A DNA stretch of 64,000 nucleotides from Christensenella sp. UBA6094 (GTDB lineage: Bacteria; Bacillota; Clostridia; Christensenellales; UBA6094). The position numbers and the translations under genes are program-made. Each line of letters begins with the position of its first letter. Position 1 is the first letter of the stretch. The notes under the pieces are model-generated. The model was not told the origin of the DNA. It saw nothing but the letters and a program-made list of their open reading frames with translations, and did no database searches. The DNA lies in contig DIWY01000003.1 of the NCBI GenBank assembly GCA_002435915.1, positions 73,369 to 137,368 on the forward strand, in the 5' to 3' direction. Shown here piece by piece: positions 20,475-36,156 of this stretch.

Positions 20475-20546
20475 ATTATCAGATAGGAAAGAGGAGGAGC
20501 GCTATTACAGTGCCTTCCTCTTTCAATATTATTAAGGAGAAAAAAC

Positions 20547-20894
20547 ATGGTAGACGAGATTATTATAGGCAGGCAGGAAAGAATGACACGTGCAAGAGTA
20601 TTAGGTGAAGAGTTTGTTTACGATGTTACCGATACAAAAACCGTAAAGAAACTTGAAGAGCTATCTAAAATCCCCACAAACGACCTAGAAGGCACGATAA
20701 AATTCTGTAAAGAGTTTTTGACGCTAGTTTTCTGCAATGACCCAAGACCATTAAAGCTCATCGAAGAAGTAAACCAAACCTCTACACAGCTGTGGATAGA
20801 TACAATACTTCAGTTTACACCTCTTATTCAAAATCCACGTGTTAAAGCTATGGAAGAGCGTCTATCTAAGCTGAAGAAGGCGGCGGGCAAATAA
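20547..20894 (+). CDS. Tail assembly chaperone (gpG-like)
   Basis: 115 aa, between the tube and tape-measure genes. Called on position. Confidence 0.5.
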   Translation: MVDEIIIGRQERMTRARVLGEEFVYDVTDTKTVKKLEELSKIPTNDLEGTIKFCKEFLTLVFCNDPRPLKLIEEVNQTSTQLWIDTILQFTPLIQNPRVKAMEERLSKLKKAAGK

Positions 20895-21490
20895 TGAGCC
20901 TACTATATCCAGATTCCTTGCCAAAAAGCGTAATAGTTGATGACATAGAATATGAGATAAGATGGCAGTATTATGTCGTGTTGGAATTACTTAAGCTTTT
21001 TTCAGATAGAACCATGTCCGACAACGAAAAAGCGTATTTTATCTTTGATCTATTTTATGTTGGCATCGTCCCTGAAAACAAGGAGTATGCGCTTAAGGCA
21101 GTTACTGCGTTCATTGATGGTGGTAGCTGGGATAACGGCTACGAAAGCGAAGAGAAAAGCGATAGACCAGTAATGGATTGGAACATTGATGCGCCTTTTA
21201 TATGGGCGAGCATGAAGCAAACATATCCATTTTGGGATTGGTCGCAGGCGCACTGGTGGGAGTTTAAGGCGGCCTTTGATGCGTTGCCGGATACAGCTAA
21301 AATAAACGAGATAATAAGAATAAGGCTTAAAAGTATAACTGGAGATATGACCAGTGAACAGCGCAAGGCATGGGTAGCGCTTAAAAAACAATATGCATTG
21401 CCAGAGAGACCTGGCGAAAAATATACAGATCGGTCTGCACAAGATATAGAGGCGGACCTAAAAAGGCAGGCGATAGAAAATGGCGACTGA
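20894..21490 (+). CDS. Phage Gp15-family protein (gpT-like tail assembly protein)
   Basis: 198 aa. The start overlaps the previous stop (TAATG). The sequence LYPDSLPKSVIVDDIEYEIRWQYYVVLE...FDLFY resembles the A118-type Gp15 family. Confidence 0.5.
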   Translation: MSLLYPDSLPKSVIVDDIEYEIRWQYYVVLELLKLFSDRTMSDNEKAYFIFDLFYVGIVPENKEYALKAVTAFIDGGSWDNGYESEEKSDRPVMDWNIDAPFIWASMKQTYPFWDWSQAHWWEFKAAFDALPDTAKINEIIRIRLKSITGDMTSEQRKAWVALKKQYALPERPGEKYTDRSAQDIEADLKRQAIENGD

Positions 21491-22766
21491 CCCAAAAAAA
21501 ATTAGTAACGATGATTTTTTGATAATGGTAACAGCAAACAAATCAAATGAAACTATAGAAGGAATATCTACTATTGTAAATGTAGGGCTATCGGCAGCTG
21601 AAAAGGCTATATATGCAACGGCAGAGAAAACTACAGGGTTATTAAGTAAAGTTGTAAGCACAGTAGGCAAGATCGGTAACGTAGGAACCGGATTGGAAAT
21701 TATAGGAGACGCTCTTCAGAAAACTGATCTGTCAACACCAAACCTACAAAATGAATTTATATATATAGATGAGAAAACAGCTAATAAAATTAATGAGACT
21801 TCTAAAAGTTTAGGAAAATCACTCAGTGAAATGGGGAGAGTGCTTAATCCAATTTATTTGGCAGGAACTTTAGCTGAAGCATATGGTTACGATAAATTGG
21901 GTGAAGTATTAAAAAACAATAGTACTCCTGTAGAGATTCTCGCAACTGCTACAAAAATTGGCCAGGCAAATGGAGCAAGTTATACTTCTGAAGGAATTAA
22001 TGAGGAAGCTTTAGCACAAGCCAAAGAGCAAATGAGTAGTTATGTAAAACCAGACAATATACCGCTAACTGAAAATGATGTATTTGATAAAGCAAATAGT
22101 CAAGTGGCAACATATATGAACAGTAATACACACGAACTATCAATTGCTGATGATGCTAAAAAGAATGAAGCAGCTGTTGCAAAAGAAATAGAGGTTTTCA
22201 AAAATACTATTGCAAATACAGCAAACGTAATAGCACAGAGTGTTGCTACGAATAGCATTGCACCGGTAGTTAAAGCAATAACAAATGTTGCAAAAAAAGC
22301 AGTCAAAACAACGACAAAACCTCTTGGTTCAGTTGGAACAAAAAGCCAGATTGAAGAAGAATATAGTAAGAATATACAGGCTTATATGGAAGAAGCAAAA
22401 AAAATGCCTTACGCTACTGTTACAAGTGATGAGACAAAAAAAAGACTTGAAGATATTAGCATGAACAATCTGCTAACATATGATATGATCGGAAAATTTG
22501 CTGTCGGTACACCATATATTCCGAAAGACATGATAGCACTTGTTCATGAAGGCGAAATGATCGTACCTAAGAGCCAAAACCCATACGCAGGAGCTAACAG
22601 GATAAAGGCTGCGATGAATGCTAGTAGTGCAGATGTAGCAGCGGCAACTGCAAATAATACAAGTAATATAACATATACATTTAACAGCCCAAAGGCATTA
22701 GGCATGAGCGAGATACTGCGTGAGATGAGACTAGTAGAACAAAGAAAAGCATTGTTGGGGGTGTAA
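21480..22766 (+). CDS. Tape measure protein (short, 428 aa)
   Basis: Ala/Lys-rich helical sequence. The C-terminal motif VHEGEMIVPKSQNPY is typical of Gram-positive siphovirus tape measure proteins. Lies between the chaperones and Dit. Confidence 0.75.
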   Translation: MATDPKKISNDDFLIMVTANKSNETIEGISTIVNVGLSAAEKAIYATAEKTTGLLSKVVSTVGKIGNVGTGLEIIGDALQKTDLSTPNLQNEFIYIDEKTANKINETSKSLGKSLSEMGRVLNPIYLAGTLAEAYGYDKLGEVLKNNSTPVEILATATKIGQANGASYTSEGINEEALAQAKEQMSSYVKPDNIPLTENDVFDKANSQVATYMNSNTHELSIADDAKKNEAAVAKEIEVFKNTIANTANVIAQSVATNSIAPVVKAITNVAKKAVKTTTKPLGSVGTKSQIEEEYSKNIQAYMEEAKKMPYATVTSDETKKRLEDISMNNLLTYDMIGKFAVGTPYIPKDMIALVHEGEMIVPKSQNPYAGANRIKAAMNASSADVAAATANNTSNITYTFNSPKALGMSEILREMRLVEQRKALLGV

Positions 22767-22767
22767 C

Positions 22768-23631
22768 ATGCAAAGATTTATTTTTACAGATGATTTGGAA
22801 GGCAAAAACTCTCCAGGAACAAAAACAATTGAGCTGCTGCATGTTCTTGAAGTTAAAGGGTTAAACGGAATGCCTTCTACGATAAACGGCTCAAAGGCTT
22901 ATGGTAAGGATGGGATTACAGTATCATCGGTAACGATGGACGCCCGTCCTTTTTCTATACTTTTTGACATATTGGGCGAAAATTTTGAAGCGGCAGCAAC
23001 AGAAAGAAGAGCGTTAACCTCGTTCTTTGGAAATAAAAAACCAAAAAGATTTGAATACTCCAGAGACGATTTTAAAGTGTATCTAAAAGATGTATATCCA
23101 GCAGGAGTCTATGAAACAGGCGTAAACGAGAAACGAATACTAAACGGCACTATGCAATTTATTGCTACAAATCCATATTTAAAAAGAGACATTCCTTTTT
23201 CTTCTTTTGCTTTTGAAACCGCTGTTTTAGAGTACTTTGAGGATGGAATTGAGTTTCCTGACACAGGTCTTGAATATTCTACAGCTGAGACTTCAATCAC
23301 CGTTGCTAATAATGGCGACGAGATATCTCCTGCTTTGATACGGTTTCATGGACCTGCGAATAATCCTGAAGTAATAAATACTACAACGAATCAAAAAATG
23401 AAAGTGCTGATAGAAATTGATTCAAATGAATATTTAGAAGTGTCAAGCGAAACTGGAAGAGTAGACAAAATTGACTCTGAAAATGTAAGGCATAATGCAT
23501 TTGATAGTATTTCAGATGATAGTGAATTCATTAATCTTGCGGTTGGTGAAAACATATTTAATTTCAATTCTGCAGGTGGCGGAACAGGATATTTAGAAGT
23601 TGGCGGGGTGGAGTATTATGCAGGTATATAG
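22768..23631 (+). CDS. Distal tail protein (Dit, siphovirus tail component)
   Basis: 287 aa, immediately after the tape measure gene. Start 1 nt after the tape-measure stop codon. Confidence 0.65.
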   Translation: MQRFIFTDDLEGKNSPGTKTIELLHVLEVKGLNGMPSTINGSKAYGKDGITVSSVTMDARPFSILFDILGENFEAAATERRALTSFFGNKKPKRFEYSRDDFKVYLKDVYPAGVYETGVNEKRILNGTMQFIATNPYLKRDIPFSSFAFETAVLEYFEDGIEFPDTGLEYSTAETSITVANNGDEISPALIRFHGPANNPEVINTTTNQKMKVLIEIDSNEYLEVSSETGRVDKIDSENVRHNAFDSISDDSEFINLAVGENIFNFNSAGGGTGYLEVGGVEYYAGI

Positions 23632-25189
23632 TAGTAGTCCTGATTTTACTTCGCTTTTTTTTATAACAGAATTCACTAAGCTTCAGATAATCCGTAGATT
23701 TTGGGGACGGAGCATATTGCAGCTTGAGATGCCTATTGAAAGTGAAGCAGTTAGCTTTCTGCAAAAGAATTGCTGGATAGTCGATGACAAGGATGAGCCG
23801 TTTATCATAAGGAGTATAACTCAAAATGAAACGACAGTTACTGTAGTTGCATATGGTTGCCATTGGGGTTTTGAAGGTAGAATTACTACACCTAATGCAG
23901 GTTCATATGCTATTGAAAAAACTGGAAGCGCAGATCAGGTCGCAAAAGGATTTATAAATGATACATTAACAAAGACCAATAAAAATCTAAATATTACTGT
24001 AGCGGATGGGCGGCCTGTGGCTCCAAATGAAGCACCAATATCGGATCAAAGCCGGTATAAAAACCTTGGTGATGAGGTGGTACGTGTACTCAAAAATGCT
24101 GGACTGGGTGAACGGTTTACATATGAAGATCGTATTATTACTTTTGATACATACCCTGGAGCAGATAACTCTAATATGTGTGTGTTTGACGTTAGGTATA
24201 AAAACATAGAGAAATATGAATACACTCTTGATGCTACTTCAACGCAAACAACTCCTATAGTCGGCGGCATGGGTGATGGTGTCGCCAGAGAAATTTATAT
24301 TGAAGAAGATAGTGACAATGTTCTAGGTTGGGATCGTAGAGAAGTTTTTGTTGATGCAAGAGATATTATTGATACAGCTATAGAAGACAGAGAAAAAAAG
24401 CTTCAACAAAGAGCGACACAAGCGATTATTTCTGAAGAGAAAAAATATTCAACAACCGTTGCAACAAATGCTAATTTAACCTACAACGAAGATTATCATC
24501 TGGGTGATTTTGTATCTATTAACGTACCAATTAAAACATATGAGGATATTAACGGATTTTTAGAACCTACAACGAAAGTCACTAAATTAAAAACTAGGAT
24601 CATTGAAGTAATTGAAACCTGCGATGAAGGCGTAGAAACTATAGAGTTAACTTTCGGTGATGATGTCATTAAAAGCGATACTACTCAGCTAAAAAGCGAT
24701 GTTGCACAGTTAAAGTCAGTAGAAAGTGCTTTTCCAGCAGGATTCGTTATGTTGTACGCAGGCTCTACTGCGCCATTTGGTTATTTGCTTGCAAATGGTC
24801 AAAGTGTTTCTAGAACTACATACTCTTCACTCTTTAGTGCAATAGGCACGACATATGGAGCAAATGATGGAAGCACATTTAAGCTTCCTGACTTACGTGG
24901 TAAAGTTTCTGTTGGACTAAGTAGCGTGGATTCGGAGTTTAATACATTAGGTAAAACAGGTGGAGCTAAAAGCGTAATACTTGATACCACAATGATACCA
25001 AATCATCGCCACCAACAAGCGATTGGCAGTTGGGACGATGGAAACTGGACGCATGCTCCTGCACAGAATCCCCCAGCAGATGGACCTGGAACTTACTGGA
25101 CAGGGTCATATACTGATTATACTGGTGGTGGATTAGCTCATAACAACTTACAACCATACATAACTCTAAACTACATAATAAAATATTAA
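23618..25189 (+). CDS. Tail-associated protein (Tal; Gp37-like N-terminal domain) with a C-terminal phage tail-collar domain
   Basis: ATG at 23618 overlaps the end of Dit. The N-terminus MQVYSSSPDFTSLFFITEFTKLQIIRRFWGRSILQLEMP fits the Sipho_Gp37 pattern. The C-terminus GYLLANGQSVSRTTYSSLFSAIGTTYGANDGSTFKLPDLRGK is the collar-domain signature. Confidence 0.75.
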   Translation: MQVYSSSPDFTSLFFITEFTKLQIIRRFWGRSILQLEMPIESEAVSFLQKNCWIVDDKDEPFIIRSITQNETTVTVVAYGCHWGFEGRITTPNAGSYAIEKTGSADQVAKGFINDTLTKTNKNLNITVADGRPVAPNEAPISDQSRYKNLGDEVVRVLKNAGLGERFTYEDRIITFDTYPGADNSNMCVFDVRYKNIEKYEYTLDATSTQTTPIVGGMGDGVAREIYIEEDSDNVLGWDRREVFVDARDIIDTAIEDREKKLQQRATQAIISEEKKYSTTVATNANLTYNEDYHLGDFVSINVPIKTYEDINGFLEPTTKVTKLKTRIIEVIETCDEGVETIELTFGDDVIKSDTTQLKSDVAQLKSVESAFPAGFVMLYAGSTAPFGYLLANGQSVSRTTYSSLFSAIGTTYGANDGSTFKLPDLRGKVSVGLSSVDSEFNTLGKTGGAKSVILDTTMIPNHRHQQAIGSWDDGNWTHAPAQNPPADGPGTYWTGSYTDYTGGGLAHNNLQPYITLNYIIKY

Positions 25190-25204
25190 AAAGAGGTGTC
25201 ATAA

Positions 25205-25834
25205 ATGGCAATAACAGGTTTTCCTTATGTGTCTGTCGAAGGCGACAGAAAAGTAACGGCAGCCAATGAGGCTACAAGAATAGATTTAATAGCAGGTAGC
25301 GGTGTAATATTTGACGAACCAACATCATTTGCCTGCGCAAAAATTTCAGATATGATGCAAGTAACAGTTCAACCAGGATCCGCACTTATTGCTGGACATG
25401 GGATTATGTCTGATGCAGTAGAAACTGTAACAATTGAAGCTGCAGATTTAAATAACCCTCGTATAGATATAATAGCGCTTGAAAGCAACTCAAATACTGG
25501 TATACGTGGTGGACGTGTGGTCGTAGTCAAAGGTATAGCAGCAACAACTCCAATTGAGCCTGCTCTTGTAACAACTGCAGGAATAAGCCAGATAAAACTG
25601 GCTACACTTTTAATTCCAGCAACAGCAACAACATTCGCGCCTGCAACTCTAACCGACGCAAGAACGAAAGGCACAGGTAAACATACACACCCAAGTTTAA
25701 CTTCTGTAAACATAACAGAGGCAATAGCTCCAGGTACAGCAAGAGTTGCTAATATCGTATTTGGTACGGGCAACGCTCCTACAATAGATAGCACGATGCC
25801 ACAAGGCACAATATATATAAAATATTTACCATAA
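25205..25834 (+). CDS. Receptor-binding / tail-fibre protein, paralogue 1 (divergent N-terminal module, short C-terminus)
   Basis: 209 aa. The N-terminal ~160 aa are colinear with the three downstream RBPs (FPYVSVEGDRKVTA...RIDIIALESN...GKHTH) at roughly 55-60% identity. Confidence 0.65.
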   Translation: MAITGFPYVSVEGDRKVTAANEATRIDLIAGSGVIFDEPTSFACAKISDMMQVTVQPGSALIAGHGIMSDAVETVTIEAADLNNPRIDIIALESNSNTGIRGGRVVVVKGIAATTPIEPALVTTAGISQIKLATLLIPATATTFAPATLTDARTKGTGKHTHPSLTSVNITEAIAPGTARVANIVFGTGNAPTIDSTMPQGTIYIKYLP

Positions 25835-25846
25835 GGAGGGAGATAA

Positions 25847-27019
25847 ATGCCCACTTTTAGATCGAACACATCCCCAAATACACTTATAACAGTCAACATG
25901 TCAAATTATAGAAATGGACCTGAAGCTCCTTCTACAATTGCTTATGCAACTGTCAATTGGAGTGTAACAACAAGTAGTGCTACGTCGTGTTCAAGCAGTA
26001 GAACACTTCAAATTTTTAACGCATGGGGCACTTTGCTTGGAAGTGGTCAAATTAAAGGAGCTGAATATTGGGGGCAAAGCACAACACATTCAGGCAGTTT
26101 TACAATTTCATTTAACCCAGGTCCAGACGTGTATTATGATTTTGCATGGCCTATTTATATACAAGTACCTGGAGATTCTTCAGATCCTTGCACTTGGATG
26201 AATAGATCATACTGCACAAACTTCGATCAGTATTGGCCAGTATACTGGAGCTATGCTACTGCGCCATCAAGTTTGTGGATGAATCCAAACTGTTATGAAA
26301 ACTCAATAAGATTGGAATGGAGTGGTGCAAATTCAGGAATAAATAACGGTATAAGTACTTACCACTGTTATTACCAATATTCTGATGATGGGTACAACTG
26401 GTCTGGAGATATTGGAATAGACTCTTCAGGAGCTACTTATGTTGACGTAAACACTTCAACATGGCCAAGAGGAAGATACCTTAGATTTCAAGTATATTCC
26501 ATTGCAAGTAGAAATAACTCACTTTCGTATCTTGCAGGTAATGCACAAAAAAATAGAGTTCCTAACACCATATCAGAAAAACCAACAGTAGATAAATCTG
26601 TATATATTGTTGGAGATCATATTCAGCTATCGTTCACACCGAACTCGACACCTGATCCTGATGGGAATATAGCTGGCTACGAAGTTGCTATGAAAAGCGA
26701 TAAAGATGTATGGTATGGTTCACCAACAAATGTCGGCGAAAAAACAACACCAAATTCTCCATACGTAATAGATATTAATACAGCAACATGGGATCCAGGT
26801 AAACGATGGAAGTTCTATGTGAGAGGATACGATTCGTTTGGAGTACGAGGTGCATGGTCGCCAGCAAGTGATTTAGTGATGATAGGTGTTGCGCTGAAAA
26901 TTAATGTTGGAAATGCATTTAAAGACAGCGCTGAGGCACTAATAAATGTAAATGGACAATGGAAACAAATCGCAGAAATGAACATAAATATAAATGGAGC
27001 TTGGAAGAACTTTACGTAA
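25847..27019 (+). CDS. Tail-fibre-associated protein with two FN3-like domains
   Basis: 390 aa. Two segments have the FN3-like pattern (WSGANSG...YHCYYQYSDDG..W and GNIAGYEVAMKSD...RGYDSFGVRGAWSP). RBS GGAGGGAG. Confidence 0.5.
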   Translation: MPTFRSNTSPNTLITVNMSNYRNGPEAPSTIAYATVNWSVTTSSATSCSSSRTLQIFNAWGTLLGSGQIKGAEYWGQSTTHSGSFTISFNPGPDVYYDFAWPIYIQVPGDSSDPCTWMNRSYCTNFDQYWPVYWSYATAPSSLWMNPNCYENSIRLEWSGANSGINNGISTYHCYYQYSDDGYNWSGDIGIDSSGATYVDVNTSTWPRGRYLRFQVYSIASRNNSLSYLAGNAQKNRVPNTISEKPTVDKSVYIVGDHIQLSFTPNSTPDPDGNIAGYEVAMKSDKDVWYGSPTNVGEKTTPNSPYVIDINTATWDPGKRWKFYVRGYDSFGVRGAWSPASDLVMIGVALKINVGNAFKDSAEALINVNGQWKQIAEMNININGAWKNFT

Positions 27020-27075
27020 GCAGAATAGCTTAGTTAAGCTTAAATTAAAGTCACTATAAAGGGTATACAAGAATA

Positions 27076-27120
27076 AAATCAGGCAGTTTGAGGAATTTAT
27101 ATCAAGCTGCCTGATTTTTA
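27076..27120 (+). terminator. Strong intrinsic terminator inside the structural region
   Basis: ATCAGGCAG (27078-27086) pairs with CTGCCTGAT (27107-27115), followed by a T-run. Confidence 0.75.
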
Positions 27121-27189
27121 ATACCCGTTAAAAGAAATTTAACACATTGAAAAGAGCAATATTATAGAGCAAATTATTAGTAACTATAC

Positions 27190-27700
27190 AAAAAACACAA
27201 GTGAGGTATGAGCATGGCAATAAAGAGTTACCCATACTCATCAGTAGATGGTGATAGAAAAATAACAGCCTCAGACGAGGCAAAAAGGTTAGATCTAATA
27301 GCAGGTAGCGGAATAATATTCGACGTTCCTACGTCATTCGAGTGCTCAAAATTGGCAGGAACTATGAACATAAACGTTGCAGCAGGCTCAGCGCTAGTAG
27401 CAGGGCATGGGATTATATCAGATGCTACAGAGACAGTCGAAATATCTGCAAGTGATTCGGCATACTCCCGTATAGACGTTATAGCGCTCGAGAGCAATAC
27501 AAATACAGATATAAGAGCTGGGCGGGTTGTAGTAATAAAAGGAACAGCAGCAGCGACTCCTATAGAACCGACGCTAAGTACGGAAGCAGGAGTGACGCAG
27601 ATAAAGCTGGCTAAAATACTTATCCCAGCAAGTATATCCAGCCTAAGCACAGCGACACTTACAGATCTAAGGGCAGCATCAGTGGGTAAACATACGCATA
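27190..27700 (+). repeat. RBP N-terminal module, direct repeat copy 1 of 3 (~0.5 kb)
   Basis: Includes the RBS region CACAAGTGAGGTAT. Bases 27364-27525 are 100% identical to 28470-28631 (162 nt). Confidence 0.9.
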
Positions 27701-28113
27701 CGCAGGAACAGATGCATTTTACAGATATAATGAGTGCTGTATATCCAGTAGGAAGTATTTATATGAGTACGTCTTCTGCAAATCCTAACACTTTGTTTGG
27801 TGTAGGAACATGGGTAGCTTGGGGAACGGGCAGAGTGCCAGTTGGTATCGACACTAGCCAAAGTGAATTTAATACCGTTGGAAAAACTGGCGGAGCAAAA
27901 ACACATACCCTTGTTACTGGTGAAATGCCTAATCATGGTCATACTGGTGTTGGTATTTTCGGAACAAGCGCAGGCAGTACTATGCGAAATCAAGTAATAC
28001 AAGGGAGTGCCAATTGGGATGGGTATACTGGCGTATATAATACAGGTGGAGATTTGCCACATAATAACTTACAACCATATGTAACATGTTATATGTGGAA
28101 AAGAACAATATAA
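27214..28113 (+). CDS. Receptor-binding / tail-fibre protein, paralogue 2 (C-terminal PVGSIY-type head)
   Basis: The start MAIKSYPY at 27214 is parallel to paralogues 3 and 4. The C-terminus carries VYPVGSIYMS...NPNTLFGVGTW...GKTGGAKTHTLVTGEMPNHGH. Confidence 0.75.
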   Translation: MAIKSYPYSSVDGDRKITASDEAKRLDLIAGSGIIFDVPTSFECSKLAGTMNINVAAGSALVAGHGIISDATETVEISASDSAYSRIDVIALESNTNTDIRAGRVVVIKGTAAATPIEPTLSTEAGVTQIKLAKILIPASISSLSTATLTDLRAASVGKHTHTQEQMHFTDIMSAVYPVGSIYMSTSSANPNTLFGVGTWVAWGTGRVPVGIDTSQSEFNTVGKTGGAKTHTLVTGEMPNHGHTGVGIFGTSAGSTMRNQVIQGSANWDGYTGVYNTGGDLPHNNLQPYVTCYMWKRTI

Positions 28114-28304
28114 CAAAGTAAAGGTAAACAATAACATTTAATAAAGATGTTAGTGTTTAAAGAAGTTAAAAGTAATTTCGTAAAGACATATAGAGAATTG
28201 GGTTGCATCATAGTATGGCGATTATTGACCAAATAATAATAGAATAACGTGATAAAAATAGCAACGACTTAAACAGGAACATCGTATATAGACAAATAAG
28301 ATAC

Positions 28305-28806
28305 AGAAGAGGTGTAAGCATGGCAATAAAGAGTTACCCATACTCATCAGTAGATGGTGATAGAAAAATAACAGCCTCGGATGAGGCAAAGAGGTTAGAT
28401 CTAATAGCAGACAGCGGAATAATATTCGACGTTCCTACGTCATTCGAGTGCTCAAAAGTAACAGGCACAATGAACATAAACGTTGCAGCAGGCTCAGCGC
28501 TAGTAGCAGGGCATGGGATTATATCAGATGCTACAGAGACAGTCGAAATATCTGCAAGTGATTCGGCATACTCCCGTATAGACGTTATAGCGCTCGAGAG
28601 CAATACAAATACAGATATAAGAGCTGGGCGGATTGTAGTAATAAAAGGCACAGCAGCGGCTACACCAGTAGAACCAGCGCTAAGTACGGAAGCAGGCGTG
28701 GCGCAGATAAAGCTAGCTAAAATATTGATCCCAGCAAGTGTGTCGAGTTTAAGCACAGCAACACTTACAGAAATGCGTTCAGCATCCGTTGGAAAGCATA
28801 AACATT
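28305..28806 (+). repeat. RBP N-terminal module, direct repeat copy 2 of 3
   Basis: About 96% nucleotide identity to copy 1 over the first ~330 nt (by eye). Divergence begins after the GKH(T/K/N)H junction. Confidence 0.9.
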
Positions 28807-29312
28807 CGAAGGCTCAAATAACTGGTGTAAGTAGTTGGAATGGTATTATTGGCGAAATTAAAGCTTTTGCAGGATCGGCAGCTCCAACAGGTACTTTACT
28901 TTGTGATGGATCGGCAGTGAGCAGAACAACGTATTCTGCTCTTTTTGCTGTAATAGGCACTAATTACGGAGCTGGGAATGGTAGCACAACATTTAACCTG
29001 CCAAATATGAAGGGTAAAGTGCCAGTTGGGTATAACTCGGCTGAAACAGAGTTTAATGTGCTCGGGAAAACAGGTGGGGAGAAGACGCATATAAATACAA
29101 TTGCAGAAATGCCAAATCATACTCATGCAATTTCAACTACTGTACATTCGGAGGAAGGAACGCATGACTGGGAATTTGTAGTTGGCACTGGTGCTGGTAC
29201 AAGAGCTTTAACATTATTTAAATCTATCACTGCAGCATATACAGGTGGTGGAGGATCACATAATAACTTGCAACCATACGTAGCTGTTAATTACATAATT
29301 GTCTATGCTTGA
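28320..29312 (+). CDS. Receptor-binding / tail-fibre protein, paralogue 3 (C-terminal tail-collar domain)
   Basis: The C-terminus carries FAGSAAPTGTLLCDGSAVSRTTYSALFAVIGTNYGAGNGSTTFNLPNMKGK, the collar-domain signature. Confidence 0.8.
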   Translation: MAIKSYPYSSVDGDRKITASDEAKRLDLIADSGIIFDVPTSFECSKVTGTMNINVAAGSALVAGHGIISDATETVEISASDSAYSRIDVIALESNTNTDIRAGRIVVIKGTAAATPVEPALSTEAGVAQIKLAKILIPASVSSLSTATLTEMRSASVGKHKHSKAQITGVSSWNGIIGEIKAFAGSAAPTGTLLCDGSAVSRTTYSALFAVIGTNYGAGNGSTTFNLPNMKGKVPVGYNSAETEFNVLGKTGGEKTHINTIAEMPNHTHAISTTVHSEEGTHDWEFVVGTGAGTRALTLFKSITAAYTGGGGSHNNLQPYVAVNYIIVYA

Positions 29313-29387
29313 TCATATTAAGAGCTACTACAGATATAAATAGAAATCAAGACTAAGAAGTGATAACGGCAAAATCAGCGATAACAA

Positions 29388-29898
29388 ATAAAACACAAGT
29401 GAGGTATAAGTATGGCAATAAAGAGTTATCCATATTCATCAGTAGATGGTGATAGAAAAATAACAGCCTCAGACGAGGCAAAGAGATTAGATTTAATAGC
29501 AGGTAGCGGAATAATATTCGACGTTTCTACGTCATTCGAGTGTTCAAAAGTAGCTGGAACTATGAACGTGAATGTATCGGCAGGTTCTGCGTTAGTAGCT
29601 GGGCATGCAATCATATCGGATTCTACAGAGACAGTCGAAATATCTGCAAGTGATTCGACATACTCCCGTATAGACGTTATAGCGCTCAAGAGCAATATAA
29701 ATACAGATATAAGAGCTGGGCGTATTGTAGTAATAAAAGGCACAGCAGCAGCAGCAATTCCAGTTGAGCCAGCGTTAAGCACTGAAGCAGGAGTCGTGCA
29801 GATAAAGCTAGCTAAGATACTGATCCCAGCAAGTGTAGCAAGTTTAAGCACAGCAACACTTACTGACTTGCGCACAGCATCAGTGGGTAAGCATAATC
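29388..29898 (+). repeat. RBP N-terminal module, direct repeat copy 3 of 3
   Basis: Roughly 90% identical to copies 1 and 2 (by eye). Shares the upstream AAACACAAGTGAGGTAT with copy 1. Confidence 0.85.
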
Positions 29899-30899
29899 AT
29901 TCGCAAGCTCATATTACAGATATGGTTAGTAATATGTATCAGAACGGTTTCGTTAATGGTGATATGCAAGTGTGGCAGATGGGGACAAGTATTGTACCAT
30001 CTGCAGCTAATAAATACTATACAGCGGATATGTGGAAGGCATATAGAGATGCTTATGATGCGAACCTCCATGTCGCACAAACCACTTACAATGGAAGTAT
30101 ACCTACTCATACATTACGAACTACAAGGGGTACAGGCGACACAGTAGTTACGCCTATTAGAATTGGGTACAATTTTACAACAGAAGAAAGTAAAAAGTAT
30201 AGGTTGAAAAAAGTAACAGTTTCATTTGTTTCAAAAATTGGTGCAGACGCGGCAGGAACATATGCCGCATATATAAACGCAGGAACAGGAACCGACCAAG
30301 ATATTATAACGGGATTCACTGGACAATCTATCCTAGCAACACTTTCGTTTACACCTACTACAACCAATCAAGTATTTACATTTACAACAAGCGCAGTTGT
30401 TGCGTTAGCGGTAAATCAATTAGCTTTTGTAGTTAAATACACACCATCCACAGCTACAGCAGGAGCAAACGACTATATAGAAATAACAAACTGCAATTGG
30501 AGTGCAACAGATTACTATGTGCTATTTTCACCAAAGAGTTTCTCTCAAGAGCTGAGAGATTGCATGATTTATTATGAAAAAAGTTTTTCATATGCCACTG
30601 CTATTGGCGCAAACACAGCGTATGGAATGTATAATCGTAGTGGAAGTAGTAATGCTCTTAACAATGTGCGTATTCATGTACCGTTTAAGGTTAATAAGAG
30701 GGCAACGCCAACCGTTGTGTTTTATACAACAACAGGTACAGTAGGCTCATGGAAATATGAACGCAACGGAGAAACAAGCACAGTTACGCCTGTTAATGAT
30801 TATACAAACGAAAATGCAATAGTCGCCTATATGGGCGTTGGGGCAGCATGGGTGGTGGCACTAGTACAAGGACACTGGGTGGCAGATGCACGAATATAA
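29412..30899 (+). CDS. Receptor-binding / tail-fibre protein, paralogue 4 (long unrelated ~330-aa C-terminal domain)
   Basis: Shares the N-terminal module. The C-terminus (NGFVNGDMQVWQMG...ADMW...) is unrelated to those of paralogues 2 and 3. Confidence 0.75.
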   Translation: MAIKSYPYSSVDGDRKITASDEAKRLDLIAGSGIIFDVSTSFECSKVAGTMNVNVSAGSALVAGHAIISDSTETVEISASDSTYSRIDVIALKSNINTDIRAGRIVVIKGTAAAAIPVEPALSTEAGVVQIKLAKILIPASVASLSTATLTDLRTASVGKHNHSQAHITDMVSNMYQNGFVNGDMQVWQMGTSIVPSAANKYYTADMWKAYRDAYDANLHVAQTTYNGSIPTHTLRTTRGTGDTVVTPIRIGYNFTTEESKKYRLKKVTVSFVSKIGADAAGTYAAYINAGTGTDQDIITGFTGQSILATLSFTPTTTNQVFTFTTSAVVALAVNQLAFVVKYTPSTATAGANDYIEITNCNWSATDYYVLFSPKSFSQELRDCMIYYEKSFSYATAIGANTAYGMYNRSGSSNALNNVRIHVPFKVNKRATPTVVFYTTTGTVGSWKYERNGETSTVTPVNDYTNENAIVAYMGVGAAWVVALVQGHWVADARI

Positions 30900-30912
30900 A
30901 AGGGGTGAGTAA

Positions 30913-31593
30913 ATGTTCGAATATATTATAGATAAAGAGCTAGTGTTTAAGGGCACCAAAAAGAGATTCACAAAATCTCCACAAAGAATTGTGCTACATC
31001 ATAGTGGCGCAAGTGCAGACCAAACAGTGGAGCAAATACATAACTATCATATAAATCATAATGGATGGCTAGGAATTGGTTACAATGCCCTTGTTGATAA
31101 AAACGGAAACGTGTTTTGGAGCAGAGGAATTGAATACGTTGGAGCACATTGTAAAGGATACAATGAGACAAGTGTTGGCATATGTGCTATTGGTAATATG
31201 GAGACGGGTCAAATGCCTGAGAAGCAGAAAACAAGCATAATTAAGCTTGTGCAAGATATAAAAACGTTCTACCCATCAATTACTACAGTCTGTGGACATA
31301 AAGAACTTGCGGCTACTGATTGCCCAGGTAAGAATTATCCACTTGAGGAAATCAAGAATTCTAAAGCACAAGCGATAGTTAAAGAGACTAAGCAGACATT
31401 AAAATTTGGTAGCCGTGGCAATGAAGTAAAAACGTTGCAACAAATGCTCATAAGCCATGGAGTTAACCCTGGTAAAGTTGATGGGATATTCGGAAAAAAC
31501 ACAGAGAAAGCAGTAAAAGAATTTCAAACTAAGGAAGGCATAGTGGTGGACGGTATAGTGGGCAAAATTTCATGGGGCAGATTGGGGGCGTAA
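30913..31593 (+). CDS. Endolysin: N-acetylmuramoyl-L-alanine amidase (Amidase_2/PGRP) with a C-terminal PG_binding_1 domain
   Basis: RIVLHHSGAS...GYNALVDKNG...GAHCKGYN...CGHKELAATDCPG in the catalytic part. The C-terminus carries LKFGSRGNEVKTLQQML...VDGIFGKNTEKAVKEFQ. Confidence 0.85.
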   Translation: MFEYIIDKELVFKGTKKRFTKSPQRIVLHHSGASADQTVEQIHNYHINHNGWLGIGYNALVDKNGNVFWSRGIEYVGAHCKGYNETSVGICAIGNMETGQMPEKQKTSIIKLVQDIKTFYPSITTVCGHKELAATDCPGKNYPLEEIKNSKAQAIVKETKQTLKFGSRGNEVKTLQQMLISHGVNPGKVDGIFGKNTEKAVKEFQTKEGIVVDGIVGKISWGRLGA

Positions 31594-31599
31594 CGCCAT

Positions 31600-31893
31600 A
31601 TGGTCGATAACATGGGTGAAAGGGTCAGGGCAGTCGAGGAGGGTCTTAAAGCTACAAAGGAAAGGCTTATTAAGGCTGAAGACATTATAGACACTATCCA
31701 TAAATTAACGATGAGCATTGACAGAATAGCAGGACAAGTTGATATGCAGAGCAAAGACATAGCAAATATGTCAGAAAGAATTAGTAGCATTGAGGATATA
31801 CCTAGAAGACGATGGAACGAAGTCGTAAAGACGCTGATCGCTTTGGGATTAGGTATGCTACTCGAATATTATTTAAAAAGAGGGGCAATTTAA
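31600..31893 (+). CDS. XhlA-like lysis-associated membrane protein
   Basis: 97 aa. N-terminal coiled coil plus a single C-terminal TM (VVKTLIALGLGMLLEYYL), as in Bacillus PBSX XhlA. Confidence 0.6.
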   Translation: MVDNMGERVRAVEEGLKATKERLIKAEDIIDTIHKLTMSIDRIAGQVDMQSKDIANMSERISSIEDIPRRRWNEVVKTLIALGLGMLLEYYLKRGAI

Positions 31894-32154
31894 ATGGATT
31901 TAATGTCGTATATAGTGAGTGAGGGGCTTATTTTGATACCGGTCTTATACTTGATCGGTATGGCTATAAAATCGACACCAAATATGCCAGATTGGTTGAT
32001 ACCATATATTTTAGGTGCGCTTGGGATAGTGGGTGCAGTTGCAATTTTGGGCATTAGTGTAAATTCGGTAATTCAAGGGATACTGGTAGCAGGAGCGGCA
32101 GTATACACTAACCAGACAATTAAGCAGATACAGCTCAAAGATACAGAGGAGTAA
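31894..32154 (+). CDS. Holin (two TM helices)
   Basis: 86 aa. Two hydrophobic helices plus a charged C-terminus. Abuts xhlA with no intergenic gap. Confidence 0.7.
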   Translation: MDLMSYIVSEGLILIPVLYLIGMAIKSTPNMPDWLIPYILGALGIVGAVAILGISVNSVIQGILVAGAAVYTNQTIKQIQLKDTEE

Positions 32155-32162
32155 GTAAAAAA

Positions 32163-32192
32163 GCGAGGCGACGTAAGTTGCCTCGCTTTTTT
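32163..32192 (+). terminator. Intrinsic terminator at the right end of the tail/lysis cluster
   Basis: GCGAGGC (32163-32169) pairs with GCCTCGC (32180-32186), followed by T6. Confidence 0.75.
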
Positions 32193-32361
32193 GCGTTTTA
32201 ATAGAAATTAAACCAATCCAAGATATGAAAATCTATTATAATACAAAATAAGAGTAAATCTGCTAAAAAACCAGAGAAAGCTCTCATTTTATTGTCACTT
32301 TATAGACATTTTTAAGATTTTTATGTTAAGCTATTTGTGGTAAATAATGAGGAGAAATTCA

Positions 32362-33654
32362 ATGGGAAACCTTAGTGGCTTATTAGATATAATTAAAAAT
32401 TATATTAAAAATAATAAAACTCTTGTGCTTGATAGTGTATGGGTTGGAATAGTCGCGGGCACAATAGCAGTTGCATACCGTTTTGTCATAACTTCTGCAG
32501 ATTTAATATTAAAAAATATCTGGGATTTTGCTCAAGGTAGCCCTATTTTAATTCTGTGTTGGTTCGTTGCACTTATAGTGCTAGGGCTAGTTGTCGGTAA
32601 GATCATCAAATGGGAGCCAATGATATCTGGCAGCGGCATCCCACAACTAAAAGCTGAGACGGAAGGAAGGCTTGATCCAAGCTGGCTTAGAGTAGTGATC
32701 GGCAAGTTTATTGGAGGCTTCTTGTGCATTTTAGGTGGATTATCACTCGGTCGTGCTGGCCCTTCAATACAGCTTGGTGCAATGTCAGGCAAAGGCGTTT
32801 CCAGAAAACTTAATAGAGGAATAGATGAAGAAAAACAGCTTATTAAATGCGGGGCATCAGCAGGACTTGCCGCAACGTTTAATACACCATTTGCAGGAGT
32901 AATATTTTCTATAGAGCAGTTGCAAAACAAATTTTCTTTATCAATATTTTTGCCACTACTTGTAGCAGCACTTGTGGCTGATTTTATATCTAAGATTGTT
33001 TTGGGTTCTAACACCATATTCCATTTTAAAGAAGGCGCAATTATGCCATTACAGTACTATTGGCTTCTTTTAGTACTTGGACTTATAATTGGAATACTTG
33101 GTGTGCTTAACGATAAAGCCACTATACTTGTAAAAAAAACATTTGATAAAATCACATGGATAAAACCTCAATATAGAATAATTATTCCATTCATATTGGC
33201 CGGATTAATAGGAATAGTTTTGCCGCAAATACTTGGCTGCGGAAGCACACTGATTTCACTCATCACAAGCGGAAACCTTACACTTAATATGCTTTTGCTT
33301 TTATTGGCAGCGAAATTTATATTCTCTATAATCTGCTTTGGCTCAGGAGCTCCTGGCGGAATGTTCTTTCCATTGCTTGTAATTGGAGCATATATTGGCA
33401 TAGTATACGGAACTTTGGTAGTTTCGCTTTTGGGGCTTGATCCAGCGCTTGTTTACAATTTTATAATTATTGCTATTGCTGGGTATTTTGCGGCGGTAGT
33501 ACGCACGCCTATTACAGCAATTATTCTTATCGCTGAAATGACAGGATCGATAACCAATGTGTTATCAATAACAATAGTTGCGGTTACTTCCTATTTGATC
33601 GCATATTTGATTAAACACGACTCAATAATGGATAGTTTATTGAAAGTCATGTAA
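32362..33654 (+). CDS. ClC-family chloride channel/transporter homologue
   Basis: ATG at 32362 follows GAGGAG. Motifs GSGIPQ, GRAGP (in place of GREGP) and GGMFFPLL. Confidence 0.85.
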   Translation: MGNLSGLLDIIKNYIKNNKTLVLDSVWVGIVAGTIAVAYRFVITSADLILKNIWDFAQGSPILILCWFVALIVLGLVVGKIIKWEPMISGSGIPQLKAETEGRLDPSWLRVVIGKFIGGFLCILGGLSLGRAGPSIQLGAMSGKGVSRKLNRGIDEEKQLIKCGASAGLAATFNTPFAGVIFSIEQLQNKFSLSIFLPLLVAALVADFISKIVLGSNTIFHFKEGAIMPLQYYWLLLVLGLIIGILGVLNDKATILVKKTFDKITWIKPQYRIIIPFILAGLIGIVLPQILGCGSTLISLITSGNLTLNMLLLLLAAKFIFSIICFGSGAPGGMFFPLLVIGAYIGIVYGTLVVSLLGLDPALVYNFIIIAIAGYFAAVVRTPITAIILIAEMTGSITNVLSITIVAVTSYLIAYLIKHDSIMDSLLKVM

Positions 33655-33790
33655 TTAATTAAAGTTTTTATAATAAACCAATTTAAAAAGATATAGAAAA
33701 TATAAAATATCATATAAATCATGGTTTATTACTTATATAAATGGGTATATATTATAAGCAAAAATATAATTGTAAAGGGCGGATAAAAAA

Positions 33791-34330
33791 ATGGCTAAGG
33801 TTAATACAGGAGAAAAAGCATTAGATTTTACTTTTAATACTCTAAACGAACAAGGATTAAAACTATCTGATGTAATCAAAAATGCAGACAAAACAGTTAT
33901 TCACTTTCTAAGATACTATGGTTGTACAGTTTGTCAATTAGACATTAGAGACTATGCTAAAAATATTAAATTAATAACAGACAAGAATGCTCAACTATTT
34001 GTTGTACTTCAAAGTAAGCCAGAAACAATTTTAGCATCTAAGGGTGAATTGGAATTGCCATTTGATATCATTTGTGACCCTGACCAAGAAATATACAAGT
34101 TATATGATATTGGCTCTTGGACTGATACAAAAGAAATTGTAAACGATGAATTAACTAAAAAAGGCGCAAGATGCAAAGAAGAAGGATTAGTTCATGGCGA
34201 ATACGAAGGCAATGAACAGCAACTTCCAGCACTTTTCATTATTAACAAAGATATGAATCTAGATTATGTTCTATATTCAAAGGATCTTACAAGCATACCT
34301 TCAGTTGAAAAGATTGCTGAGATGTTATAA
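33791..34330 (+). CDS. Peroxiredoxin-like (AhpC/TSA, PRX_like2-type) CxxC protein, paralogue 1 of 5
   Basis: 179 aa. Motifs FLRYYGCTVCQLD, PFDIICDPDQ, HGEYEGNEQQLPALFII. Confidence 0.7.
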   Translation: MAKVNTGEKALDFTFNTLNEQGLKLSDVIKNADKTVIHFLRYYGCTVCQLDIRDYAKNIKLITDKNAQLFVVLQSKPETILASKGELELPFDIICDPDQEIYKLYDIGSWTDTKEIVNDELTKKGARCKEEGLVHGEYEGNEQQLPALFIINKDMNLDYVLYSKDLTSIPSVEKIAEML

Positions 34331-34353
34331 GAATTCGTTTTCCGAGCACATAA

Positions 34354-34382
34354 AAGAGATTGTTTATACAATCTCTTTTTTA
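34354..34382 (+). terminator. Intrinsic terminator after paralogue 1
   Basis: AAGAGATTGT pairs with ACAATCTCTT, followed by a T-run. Confidence 0.7.
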
Positions 34383-34477
34383 ATTATAAATATTTAGAAC
34401 TATAAGAAAATAAGTGGTTAAACCTAGTGCTAATTGGGTAAATATTATGTATATTTTGAATAAAAGGAATGATTTAA

Positions 34478-35020
34478 ATGGCTAAGGTTAATACAGGTGA
34501 AATGGCTCTAGATTTTACGTTTGATACAGTTAAAGAAAATGGTCTGAAATTATCTGATGTAGTTAAAAATGCGGATACTACTATTGTTCATTTCCTAAGA
34601 TACTATGGTTGCCCTACTTGCCAATTGGATATTAGAGACTACATGAATTTATATGATGAAATAAAAAATAAGAACGCGCAAGTATATGTAGTTTTGCAAA
34701 GCAAACCACAGATAATTAAAGATGCTTTGGGAGAAGATGCATTACCATTTGACATCATTTGTGATCCTGACCAAGAAATATACAAGCTTTATGAGATTGG
34801 TTCATTAACTGACAGAAGCTTAGTAGACATGGACAAAATGAAGGACAAAATCGCAAAAATTCAAGAACTCGGAATAGAACATGGTGAATACGAAGGTAAC
34901 GAACAACAATTAACTGCAATCTTTATTATTGATAAAGATATGAATCTAAAACATGCTCAATATTCAGTTACTGTAACTGATATGCCTTCACCAAAAGAAG
35001 TTGTTGAAACATTAATATAA
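34478..35020 (+). CDS. Peroxiredoxin-like CxxC protein, paralogue 2 of 5
   Basis: 180 aa. YYGCPTCQ. Colinear with paralogue 1. Confidence 0.7.
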   Translation: MAKVNTGEMALDFTFDTVKENGLKLSDVVKNADTTIVHFLRYYGCPTCQLDIRDYMNLYDEIKNKNAQVYVVLQSKPQIIKDALGEDALPFDIICDPDQEIYKLYEIGSLTDRSLVDMDKMKDKIAKIQELGIEHGEYEGNEQQLTAIFIIDKDMNLKHAQYSVTVTDMPSPKEVVETLI

Positions 35021-35048
35021 TTAGAGATTAATAAAAGGGCTGATAAAA

Positions 35049-35588
35049 ATGGGTAAAGTAAAAGCAGGCGATAAAGCAATAGATTTCACATTTAATACAA
35101 TTGCTGAAACAGGTCTAAAGTTATCGGATGTAGTGAAAAACGCAGACACTACTATTGTACATTTTCTAAGATATTATGGCTGCACTACTTGCCAGTTGGA
35201 CATCCGAGATTACATGAAACTAACTGACAAAATTAAAGATAAGAATGCTCAGCTATACGTTGTTCTTCAAAGTAAGCCAGAAATAATTACTGCATCCATG
35301 GAAGAAGCGTTGCCGTTTGATATCATCTGTGACCCAGATCAACAGCTTTATAAGCTTTATGAAATAGGCTCATTAACTGATCCGAGTTTAATAGATATGG
35401 AAAAGAAGATGGCTAAGAGAGCTAGAGTTCAAGAGGCGGGCTTAGTACATGGCGAATATGAAGGCAATGAACAGCAGTTAACTGCTTTGTTCATTATGGA
35501 TAAAAACATGGTGCTAAAATATGCACAATATTCACTAAGTAACACAGATATGCCTTCATCAGATGAAGTAGTTGAGACATTAATATAA
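35049..35588 (+). CDS. Peroxiredoxin-like CxxC protein, paralogue 3 of 5
   Basis: 179 aa. YYGCTTCQ. 28 nt after paralogue 2. Confidence 0.7.
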   Translation: MGKVKAGDKAIDFTFNTIAETGLKLSDVVKNADTTIVHFLRYYGCTTCQLDIRDYMKLTDKIKDKNAQLYVVLQSKPEIITASMEEALPFDIICDPDQQLYKLYEIGSLTDPSLIDMEKKMAKRARVQEAGLVHGEYEGNEQQLTALFIMDKNMVLKYAQYSLSNTDMPSSDEVVETLI

Positions 35589-35613
35589 TTTTAATTGAAA
35601 AGGACTGACAAAA

Positions 35614-36156
35614 ATGGGCAAGGTAAAAACAGGCGAAAAAGCAATAGATTTTACGTTTAACACCGATAATAAGACTGGGCTAAAGTTGTCAGATGTAGTT
35701 AAGAATGCTGATAAGACTATCGTGCATTTTCTTAGATACTATGGCTGCCGTATTTGCCAATTGGACATTAGAGATTACGTAAAATTATATGATCAAATAA
35801 AAGCAAAGAATGCTCAGCTATTTATAGTATTGCAAAGCAAACCTCAAACAATCAAAAATGCTGCAACAGAAGTGGCGTTCCCGTTTGATATCATATGTGA
35901 CCCAGATCAAGAGTTATATAAGCTTTATGATATTGGTTCTATGACGGAGTCAACTGTTATGGACAAAGAAAAGATGGCGGCTGCATCTGCACGCATTCAA
36001 GCCTCAGGTCTAGTACATGGCGAATATGAAGGCAATGAGCAACAATTACCTGCAATCTTCATTTTAGATAAAGATATGAATGTTTTATATGATAAATATT
36101 CAGATAATTTAACTGACTTGCCTTCACCAGCTGAAGTTGTAGAAACATTAATATAA
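35614..36156 (+). CDS. Peroxiredoxin-like CxxC protein, paralogue 4 of 5
   Basis: 180 aa. YYGCRICQ. 25 nt after paralogue 3. Confidence 0.7.
   Translation: MGKVKTGEKAIDFTFNTDNKTGLKLSDVVKNADKTIVHFLRYYGCRICQLDIRDYVKLYDQIKAKNAQLFIVLQSKPQTIKNAATEVAFPFDIICDPDQELYKLYDIGSMTESTVMDKEKMAAASARIQASGLVHGEYEGNEQQLPAIFILDKDMNVLYDKYSDNLTDLPSPAEVVETLI

Follow-up and report, generated by a model that had tools for sequence, protein, structure and literature searches.

How a small phage-tail-like gene cluster would come to carry four receptor-binding proteins on what appears to be one and the same anchor is the question raised by a tandem gene array in Christensenella sp. UBA6094 (assembly GCA_002435915.1, contig DIWY01000003.1, positions 73,369-137,368 of the forward strand; this whole stretch of 64,000 nucleotides (nt) is called the window, and all coordinates are those of the window). 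The array lies within an element of ~16 kb (15.6-32.2 kb) in this uncultured low-GC Bacillota. The favoured answer, given a probability of roughly 0.6, is that it forms the receptor-binding end of a non-contractile (F-type) tailocin-like element, in which a single docking receptor-binding protein (RBP) has been expanded to four genes whose products would share an anchor on Dit. That reading is built on the anatomy of the array, the homology of its shared module, the folds of its heads, synteny, variation in copy number and a conversion tract; docking on Dit and co-incorporation of the four proteins are what it would add to them. Comparison was made with related loci found through look-ups of exact proteins (L010/L011, L012 and L020). 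Profile scans of genome and metagenome contigs with alignments of the shared module or of Dit gave 0 matches, as did a scan of IMG/VR with Dit.

The four genes and the longest exact repeat among them are as follows.

25205-25834, plus strand: copy 1, 209 amino acids (aa), the shared N-terminal module (hidden Markov model (HMM) match 1-163) and a C-terminal tail of ~45 aa
27214-28113, plus strand: copy 2, 299 aa, the module and a Gp10_C-type head (Pfam Gp10_C 1e-31, residues 175-300)
28320-29312, plus strand: copy 3, 330 aa, the module and a Collar plus Gp10_C head (Pfam Collar 4e-23, and Gp10_C)
29412-30899, plus strand: copy 4, 495 aa, the module and a predicted carbohydrate-binding module (CBM)-like head of ~320 aa (from fold match, phage heads and synteny)
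27364-27525, plus strand: exact tract of 162 nt shared by copies 2 and 3, equal to 28470-28631 (from run-length permutation and grouping of variable sites)

The HMM of the module matches 4/4 of these open reading frames (ORFs) over positions 1-163, all four are intact and each has its own ribosome-binding site (RBS) and ATG. For copy 2 there is an alternative ATG at 27208 that would give 301 aa; the start at 27214 is preferred because of the spacing of its GAGG box, the starts of the other copies and the database protein P0008, an exact copy 2 protein on record from both NCBI and JGI. Copies 2-4 share a block of ~510 nt, which runs from ~17 nt 5' of the ATG, with the RBS inside it, to about codon 166, just beyond the junction GKH(T/K/N)H, after which their identity is 30-45%, and the blocks are spaced 1106 and 1092 nt apart. 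An initial annotation, made from the letters alone, had described four same-strand ORFs with a common N-terminal module, 0.5-kb direct repeats ~1.1 kb apart, an RBS within the shared DNA, a collapse of identity past the junction and the exact 162-nt repeat, and in all these respects it was accurate. It had also called copies 2-4 near-identical at the DNA level, which goes too far: identity over 506 aligned positions is 90.5% for copies 2 and 3, 86.6% for copies 2 and 4 and 87.5% for copies 3 and 4, so that they are similar rather than near-identical. Copy 1 stands further off, with 56-61% protein identity and 64% DNA identity to the others. Minus-strand ORFs of 140-149 aa lie antisense within the modules of copies 2-4 (27228-27650, 28334-28756 and 29426-29875); having no separate support as genes, they were dismissed as by-products of the repeated coding sequence.

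Repeats of this kind raise the suspicion that the array is a product of assembly, through repeat expansion or a chimeric join, and short-read assemblies do break in every repeat. Four contigs from three different samples match the window at 100% identity, namely L001 (ERZ27315036; window 15205-27504), L002 from the same sample (28491-40899), L003 (JGI 3300001567; 28545-40899) and L005 (SRR5323180; 29628-35925). L001 runs out after the first 141 nt of the 162-nt perfect repeat and L002 starts with its last 141 nt, which are exactly the points at which an assembler using k=141 must break when it meets such a repeat. Across the independent contigs every link of the array is seen except that from the copy 2 head to the start of copy 3 (27526-28469), which is the one junction left to the advocate of an artefact. 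Against it, the exact copy 2 and copy 4 proteins are both recorded on a single 295-kb NCBI contig, no two copies have the same head or the same upstream spacer, and the copies differ at 9-13% of module positions. An artefact is scarcely credible: the array is real, as independent metagenome contigs match it perfectly and break inside its repeats.

The partner to which the module would bind is suggested by its relatives and by the two genes that precede the array.

22768-23631, plus strand: Dit, 287 aa (Pfam Sipho_tail and SPP1_Dit; PHROG 33; weak collinear match to the Dit of phage 86501)
23618-25189, plus strand: Tal, 523 aa, with a C-terminal receptor-binding-type domain (Pfam Sipho_Gp37 4e-40, Collar 3e-20, Gp10_C)

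No Pfam model matches the module, and PHROGs divides it among several families whose labels disagree ('head protein', 'virion structural protein', 'tail protein'); some phage records copy the first two of these labels for proteins that carry it. A tblastn search of 50,697 phage records found the module in 169, once per record every time, in phages of Streptomyces, Paenibacillus, Microbacterium, Lactococcus and Butyrivibrio, where the protein is annotated as a minor tail protein, tail fiber or receptor binding protein. Lactococcus phage 86501 has the gene order tape measure protein (TMP)-Dit-Tal-RBP, with the match falling at the N-terminal end of the protein annotated as RBP (tblastn E 5e-6, 94% of the module covered; hhalign probability 97.6%, E 4.7e-12, module 1-155 against RBP 1-146). 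A profile search of 1.84 billion representatives returned 13,737 clusters (defined at 50% identity), 5,468 of them at E<=1e-10. Of the best 150 among the 13,737, 149 have the module at the very beginning of the protein (residue 1), with total lengths of about 80-890 aa, which is the mark of an N-terminal anchor in wide use to which different C-termini can be fitted. Invariant columns of the family are frequent at its beginning, 12/46 falling within the first 23 residues. Goulet et al. (PMC9692632) describe the N-terminal domain of the phiLC3 RBP as a p2-like trimeric 'shoulder' whose cavity docks on the arm and hand of Dit, and in their model the first ~20 residues contact Dit and rearrange on binding. 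By sequence comparison the module is homologous to the N-terminal domain of these phiLC3-group (P335) RBPs, and by analogy it would be a docking-type domain, with Dit as its probable platform. The earlier proposal that the shared module is the baseplate-docking part is supported both by the homology to the phage 86501 RBP and by the N-terminal position in 149 of the best 150 clusters.

A number of observations weigh against docking of all four proteins on Dit, or against their joint use. The AlphaFold2 (AF2) monomer of the module is mostly beta after one helix and reaches pLDDT values of 55-75 only, its sole sequence match in PDB is marginal (30yz_W, an RBP N-terminus, E 0.079), and fold searches with the copy 4 model are dominated by the CBM head and give no match of the module to a solved shoulder. 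The comparison of Dit with the 298-aa Dit of phage 86501 is collinear in hhalign and weak (29.7% probability), Dit has no match in PDB, and a p2-type arm and hand are not shown by so weak a comparison. The only large indel among the tailocin Dits is at residues ~160-170, roughly where p2-type Dits carry their arm/hand extension. The copy 1 module shares no more than ~60% identity with the others and might dock at a site of its own. Where N-modules are ~90% identical, trimers of mixed composition could bring together heads that do not match, a potential difficulty. Particle production and killing are themselves predictions from the genes. Finally, transcription may not treat the four genes alike, as the following element stands 5' of three RBP genes and the lysis genes.

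27075-27124, plus strand: terminator-like hairpin with a 17-bp stem and a U-run, between copy 1 with the gene that follows it and copies 2-4

The 121-nt intergenic stretch that holds this hairpin has a minimum free energy of -34.3 kcal/mol (z -5.2), and an analogous hairpin occurs in the matching position of L012 (~11805-11840). Its role may be attenuation or mRNA stabilisation, or it may be a relic of the insertion of the units upstream, and expression of copies 2-4 may in consequence be different or lower.

The history of the array can be followed in the related loci. L010/L011 and L020 each have one gene with the module, of the copy 4 type and directly before the amidase. L012 has a copy 1 orthologue, a 384-aa FN3 protein, the hairpin just mentioned and the first 10 codons of a further module gene (MAIRSFPYVS), at which point the contig ends. 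Module genes thus number one in L010/L011, one in L020, at least two in L012 and four in the window, in line with the loss and gain of cassettes that had been predicted. Because the relatives L010/L011 and L020 carry a single RBP, the array in the window is taken to be an expansion, and on the simplest reading the ancestor was an RBP of the copy 4 type, with the other units inserted later in the gap that separates it from Tal. The L020 RBP has 341 aa (9652-10677) and is followed by a separate 111-aa ORF (10819-11154) before the amidase; a split or a frameshift of the gene is possible.

The duplicates are not young. Synonymous divergence (dS) among copies 2-4 is 0.25-0.48 (0.43 for copies 2 and 3 outside the perfect tract), the ratio of nonsynonymous to synonymous divergence (dN/dS) is 0.10-0.16, and the similarity of the proteins is due mainly to purifying selection; between copy 1 and the others dS is saturated at 1.7-2.4. 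The 162-nt tract is a different matter. A run of this length was reached in 0/20,000 permutations against the background divergence of 9.5% (p<5e-5), and within the tract 20 consecutive variable sites group copy 2 with copy 3, with mixed patterns elsewhere. One gene-conversion event is therefore well supported, as distinct from general homogenisation. Where the initial annotation had spoken of ongoing conversion homogenising the anchor, the single tract stands and most of the likeness is a matter of selection. A further trace of exchange may be present in L007, a contig of 1146 bp from another sample (JGI 3300034783) which encodes P0009, a strain variant of copy 3. It has the copy 3 head (9 differences in ~600 nt), the upstream spacer of copy 2 and a mosaic module with copy 2, copy-4-state and private changes; as either a natural recombinant or an assembly chimera, it is only suggestive of cassette shuffling.

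These features could also be taken to mean that the array is a store of heads, one copy (probably copy 4, beside the lysis genes, or copy 1, which precedes the hairpin) being made in useful amounts and the others switched in by homologous recombination between the repeats, so that specificity would change at the level of the population. Direct repeats of this length and spacing are good recombination substrates, and the conversion tract between copies 2 and 3, the joining of copy 2 upstream sequence and a mosaic module to a copy 3 head in L007, the differences in copy number among lineages and the hairpin 5' of copy 2 would all fit. However, none of the copies has lost its reading frame, RBS or start codon, and purifying selection on every module would be unexpected for silent cassettes. 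The lysis genes lie 3' of copies 2-4, so that transcription passes through these copies or starts nearby, the cluster shows no gene for an invertase or recombinase, and L007 is possibly a chimera. A store of mostly silent heads is accordingly regarded as distinctly unlikely beside an array of four working genes on one anchor.

The heads behind the anchor are of several kinds. That of copy 4 (residues ~172-495) belongs to a large family for which there is no Pfam model, and 111/120 of the matches listed carry this part behind other, mostly short, N-terminal anchors. Its AF2 model has pLDDT >90 over residues 180-390, the fold is that of the CBM4/CBM22/CBM16 beta-sandwiches (TM-score ~0.67 to the target), and it resembles the 'CenC-like carbohydrate-binding' heads of many phage tail fibres in BFVD; from the model, the head is predicted to be CBM-like and to bind glycans. 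Two metagenome proteins, P0012 (702 aa) and P0014 (818 aa), have two such heads in tandem on one polypeptide. The phage protein P0006 is 57% identical to copy 4 from copy 4 residue 174 onwards, that is, from 12 residues past the GKHNHS junction, and is the last structural gene before the endolysin on a ~100-kb phage-like contig from the same metagenome sample, which suggests either exchange of heads between phage and tailocin or a shared receptor. P0006 is encoded at 10001-11530 of L008/L009, has a different N-terminus, and its contig also encodes a 1364-aa tape measure, NrdD, Thy1 and a dUTPase.

Copy 3 has a PDB match to a long tail fiber (8kec, 1e-9), and its head is 46% identical to the C-terminus of Tal, in keeping with the collar head like that of Tal that had been described for it. 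Copy 2 shares its Gp10_C part with copy 3 and with Tal. The heads of copies 2 and 3, to judge from these domain matches, carry fibre-tip domains (Collar/Gp10_C) and are related to each other, so that the three unrelated kinds of C-terminus proposed earlier do not hold. For the module, copy 4, Dit and the protein that follows copy 1, searches of PDB by sequence gave nothing usable.

25847-27019, plus strand: FN3/Ig-like tandem-domain protein, 390 aa (AF2 pLDDT 86; Foldseek matches to tandem FN3 domains)

That this protein contains FN3 domains, as had been annotated, agrees with its AF2 chain of FN3/Ig-like domains, with the Foldseek matches and with the Pfam fn3 domain present in some of its homologues. 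Copy 1 itself has no large head; ~45 aa follow the HTH motif and end in GTIYIKYLP. In L012 the copy 1 orthologue (69% identity) is again followed by an orthologue of the 390-aa protein (67%). The complete prophages L014 and L015 have a 219-aa protein whose tail is of the copy 1 type (E 5e-9) but whose N-domain has diverged much further; a 396-aa homologue of the FN3 protein comes next, and the pair is their only candidate adhesion module after Tal. The earlier view of copy 1 as an older copy is right as to its divergence; as to its origin, a conserved pairing with the FN3 protein in L012 and a tail that travels with FN3 homologues in L014 and L015 make it look like half of a two-gene unit taken from phages and not simply an old duplicate.

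It is from copy 1 that the strongest competing account of the baseplate arises, in which copy 1 would be a BppU-like adaptor for the FN3 protein, with copies 2-4 placed elsewhere or on copy 1 or Tal, so that the positions of the proteins would be fixed and not interchangeable. Tiers of adaptor and RBP are known in TP901-1 and monocin (PMC12917162), copy 1 diverged long ago from copies 2-4, as its dS and protein identity indicate, and it is short-tailed and always found with the FN3 protein, even in the phages where the pair is the only adhesion module. Set against this, the first ~20 residues and the invariant core are conserved between copy 1 and copies 2-4, which suggests the same partner. 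L010 and L020 have a single module protein and no pair of copy 1 and FN3 genes, so that proteins of the type of copies 2-4 do not need copy 1, and in phiLC3-type phages the domain is modelled as docking directly on Dit. A tiered arrangement is considered unlikely, and direct docking of all four proteins on Dit is preferred.

The surroundings of the array are those of a tail gene cluster, of which the features not yet given are listed here.

15626-16381, minus strand: CI/LexA-like repressor, helix-turn-helix and S24 peptidase (Pfam Peptidase_S24 1.8e-24; PHROG 4, transcriptional repressor)
19503-19964 and 19974-20474, plus strand: two tandem major tail (tube) protein paralogues (both match phrog_3099 and phrog_820)
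21480-22766, plus strand: short TMP, 428 aa (C-terminal match to PHROG 25966; located between the chaperone genes and Dit)
30913-32194, plus strand: lysis cassette, with an amidase endolysin at 30913-31593 (Amidase_2 and PG_binding_1), a 97-aa protein, a holin at 31894-32154 and a terminator at 32155-32194

The order over 15.6-32.2 kb is first the repressor, transcribed divergently from the tail operon, small early-type genes (ORFs matching the phage early genes Gp157 and DUF7768), a tail-completion-like protein and the two tube paralogues, and then two genes in the chaperone position, TMP, Dit, Tal, the array and the lysis cassette. The holin was recognised by a Phage_holin_5_2 match read on the identical gene in L002, and the terminator at the end of the cassette is strong, with an 18-bp stem. 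Orthologues of the repressor in L010 and L012 are 86-87% identical. Host genes lie on both sides, with an MFS transporter upstream and, downstream, a CLC channel and a run of AhpC-type paralogues.

Among the ORFs of the cluster Pfam and PHROG searches gave no match to portal, terminase, capsid or integrase, nor to BppU, and a scan of ORFs at 13.9-21.5 kb gave only a scaffold-like match below threshold (22.9 bits; cut-off 35). The longest ORF within 16.4-21.5 kb has 198 aa, which leaves no place for a sheath. What is present is a siphovirus-type tail module (tube, TMP, Dit and Tal) without sheath, head, replication or integration genes and with its own repressor and lysis cassette. The cluster is at one common chromosomal site, marked by the repressor at one end and the CLC channel and AhpC paralogues at the other, and is syntenic in the three diverged lineages L010/L011, L012 and L020 at 60-89% protein identity, as a conserved locus passed on vertically would be. 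On the strength of these tail genes, the repressor, the lysis cassette, the lack of head and sheath genes and the synteny in related lineages, the cluster looks like a domesticated non-contractile (F-type) tailocin-like element, and the F-type tailocin context assumed in the initial annotation is a good fit.

A decaying prophage, with the array as leftover tail-fibre diversity that has no current role, would leave similar genes. The early genes among the small upstream ORFs and the RBP of L020, which may be split into 341 + 111 aa, could be taken in that sense, and tailocin activity is, as already said, a prediction from genes. Yet all structural and lysis ORFs are intact, the same site and gene order are kept in lineages that differ by 11-40% at the protein level, sequence 100% identical to the window is found in three independent samples, there is no integrase, and the modules are under purifying selection. 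A remnant without function is very improbable, and the cluster is better read as a maintained tailocin-like element.

The mechanism that follows from this reading can be outlined in conditional terms. The ancestral state would have been Dit, Tal, one RBP and an amidase, the RBP having a shoulder-type N-module, a GKHxH junction and a CBM-like glycan-binding head of the copy 4 type. Three more units with the same docking module would then have been inserted between Tal and this RBP: copy 1 with its FN3 partner, copy 2 with a Gp10_C head, and copy 3 with a Collar plus Gp10_C head akin to the C-terminus of Tal. Judged from the homologous RBPs of phiLC3 and p2, each protein would trimerise and its N-terminal domain would dock on the Dit hexamer, which would offer six positions per particle. 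Paralogues would share or compete for equivalent Dit sites, giving mixed particles or a mixed population, and the array together with the collar domain of Tal would extend the range of cell-wall glycans bound. Constancy of the module would come mainly from purifying selection imposed by the shared Dit partner, with occasional conversion between paralogues, and heads would be swapped just past the GKHxH junction, also with phages of the same habitat. Pressed further, the same outline leads to mosaic baseplates, in which the six Dit sites are filled by a mixture of the four RBP trimers, with Tal adding up to a total of five glycan specificities, the anchor being kept by selection and conversion and the heads drawn from co-resident phages. 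This extension is put forward only tentatively, as a possibility with the balance against it; if true, it would be a natural plug-and-play, multivalent targeting platform among Gram-positive tailocins.

Several known systems resemble parts of this arrangement. One likeness is to the RBPs of the lactococcal phages phiLC3, 50101, 86501 and Q33 (P335 type III/IV) and of Skunavirus p2, which have a homologous N-terminal domain and a gene directly after Dit and Tal; as here, there is no BppU-type adaptor. In lactococcal P335 RBPs saccharide-binding heads are swapped behind a conserved anchor (PMC9692632). Those phages have one RBP gene, whereas here there are four genes with the module and no capsid genes. 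The heads differ too, being CBM-like or Collar/Gp10_C instead of the lactococcal head fold, and an HxH junction takes the place of the helical or beta-helix neck.

Arrays of fibre genes are known from contractile tailocins. In the R-type tailocins of Kosakonia (kosakonicin) there are three fibre genes, whose products are 68.6% identical in residues 1-153 and highly variable towards the C-terminus; strains differ in the number and content of their fibres, against a conserved remainder of the cluster (PMC6629978). For a Pseudomonas strain, up to three fibre genes and a broader range are cited (PMC6629978; Dorosky et al. 2018 as cited in PMC13195805). The present array is like these multi-fibre R-type tailocins in being part of a chromosomal cluster, with at least three tandem fibre genes, a conserved N-terminus, variable C-termini and a proposed broader range. 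R-type tailocins, however, are contractile and P2-like, belong to Gram-negative hosts, use lipopolysaccharide receptors and have fibre chaperones, whereas the element described here is non-contractile and siphovirus-like, is found in Bacillota (Gram-positive-type), has a p2-type shoulder anchor and lacks fibre chaperone genes. Assignment to the kosakonicin type of R-type tailocin was rejected, as there is no sheath gene, and the likeness is limited to the design of the fibre array.

In its general plan the element resembles Listeria monocin and Enterococcus efagin, which are compact (11-16 kb), under SOS-type regulation and non-contractile, with their own lysis cassette and no head genes. Both are targeted by a carbohydrate-binding C-terminal domain (PMC12917162; bioRxiv 10.64898/2025.12.13.693970), monocin through a BppU-like adaptor, FtbN, and one RBP, FtbP (PMC12917162), and efagin through a single targeting protein, EF1291 (bioRxiv 10.64898/2025.12.13.693970). 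The window, in contrast, has four anchor-bearing proteins and a receptor-type domain on Tal. Membership of the Listeria monocin family was rejected, as Dit, Tal, the major tail protein and the array proteins have no PDB match to any chain named monocin.

Multi-RBP phages usually use dedicated adaptor or branching domains, with a place of its own for each RBP. Such phages, for example the dual-RBP Klebsiella phages (PMC13579863), resemble the array in having several RBPs of different specificities side by side for one particle; they differ in that here a single anchor is common to all four proteins, which would be mounted at sites of one kind. A literature search of limited scope turned up no description of several RBP genes in array for any F-type tailocin, in agreement with the earlier remark that none was known for that type, but the same design has been published for R-type tailocins (PMC6629978). 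Conserved anchors, swapped heads and several fibres per tailocin are already established, and the gain in that respect is incremental.

What is apparently new is an F-type tailocin-like lineage, so far undescribed, in uncultured Bacillota, with a p2-type RBP expanded to four, as read from its genes. Characterised Gram-positive non-contractile tailocins are few (monocin and efagin), each with one targeting protein, and four anchor-sharing RBPs would show how such particles broaden their range; the array probably widens what the particle can attack. The array would also allow the question to be put of how six Dit sites are divided among several RBPs, and the GKHxH junction would be a natural splice point for the engineering of heads. 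In addition, the analysis exposes a very large family of RBP N-termini (the 13,737 clusters) that is without a Pfam model and partly mislabelled in PHROGs.

Some minor features of the cluster may be added. The two tube paralogues are roughly 60-65% identical to each other, judged from cross-matches to each other's orthologues; the window and L012 have two tube genes, L010 and L020 one. Two tube proteins are unusual for so small a tail cluster, and in the four loci seen they accompany the multi-RBP state. The TMP, of 428 aa in the window, has 533 aa in L010 (5805-7406), 475 aa in L012 (6174-7601) and 393 aa in L020 (5874-7055), and good conservation between the window and L010 is confined to the last ~110 aa; since its length varies among otherwise conserved loci, particles with different tail lengths are predicted. 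Just past the CLC channel gene there are five tandem AhpC/TSA-redoxin paralogues of 179-192 aa (33791-36775), with three in the stretch of L010 seen, and these form a second tandem gene array beside the tailocin, unrelated to that of the RBPs.

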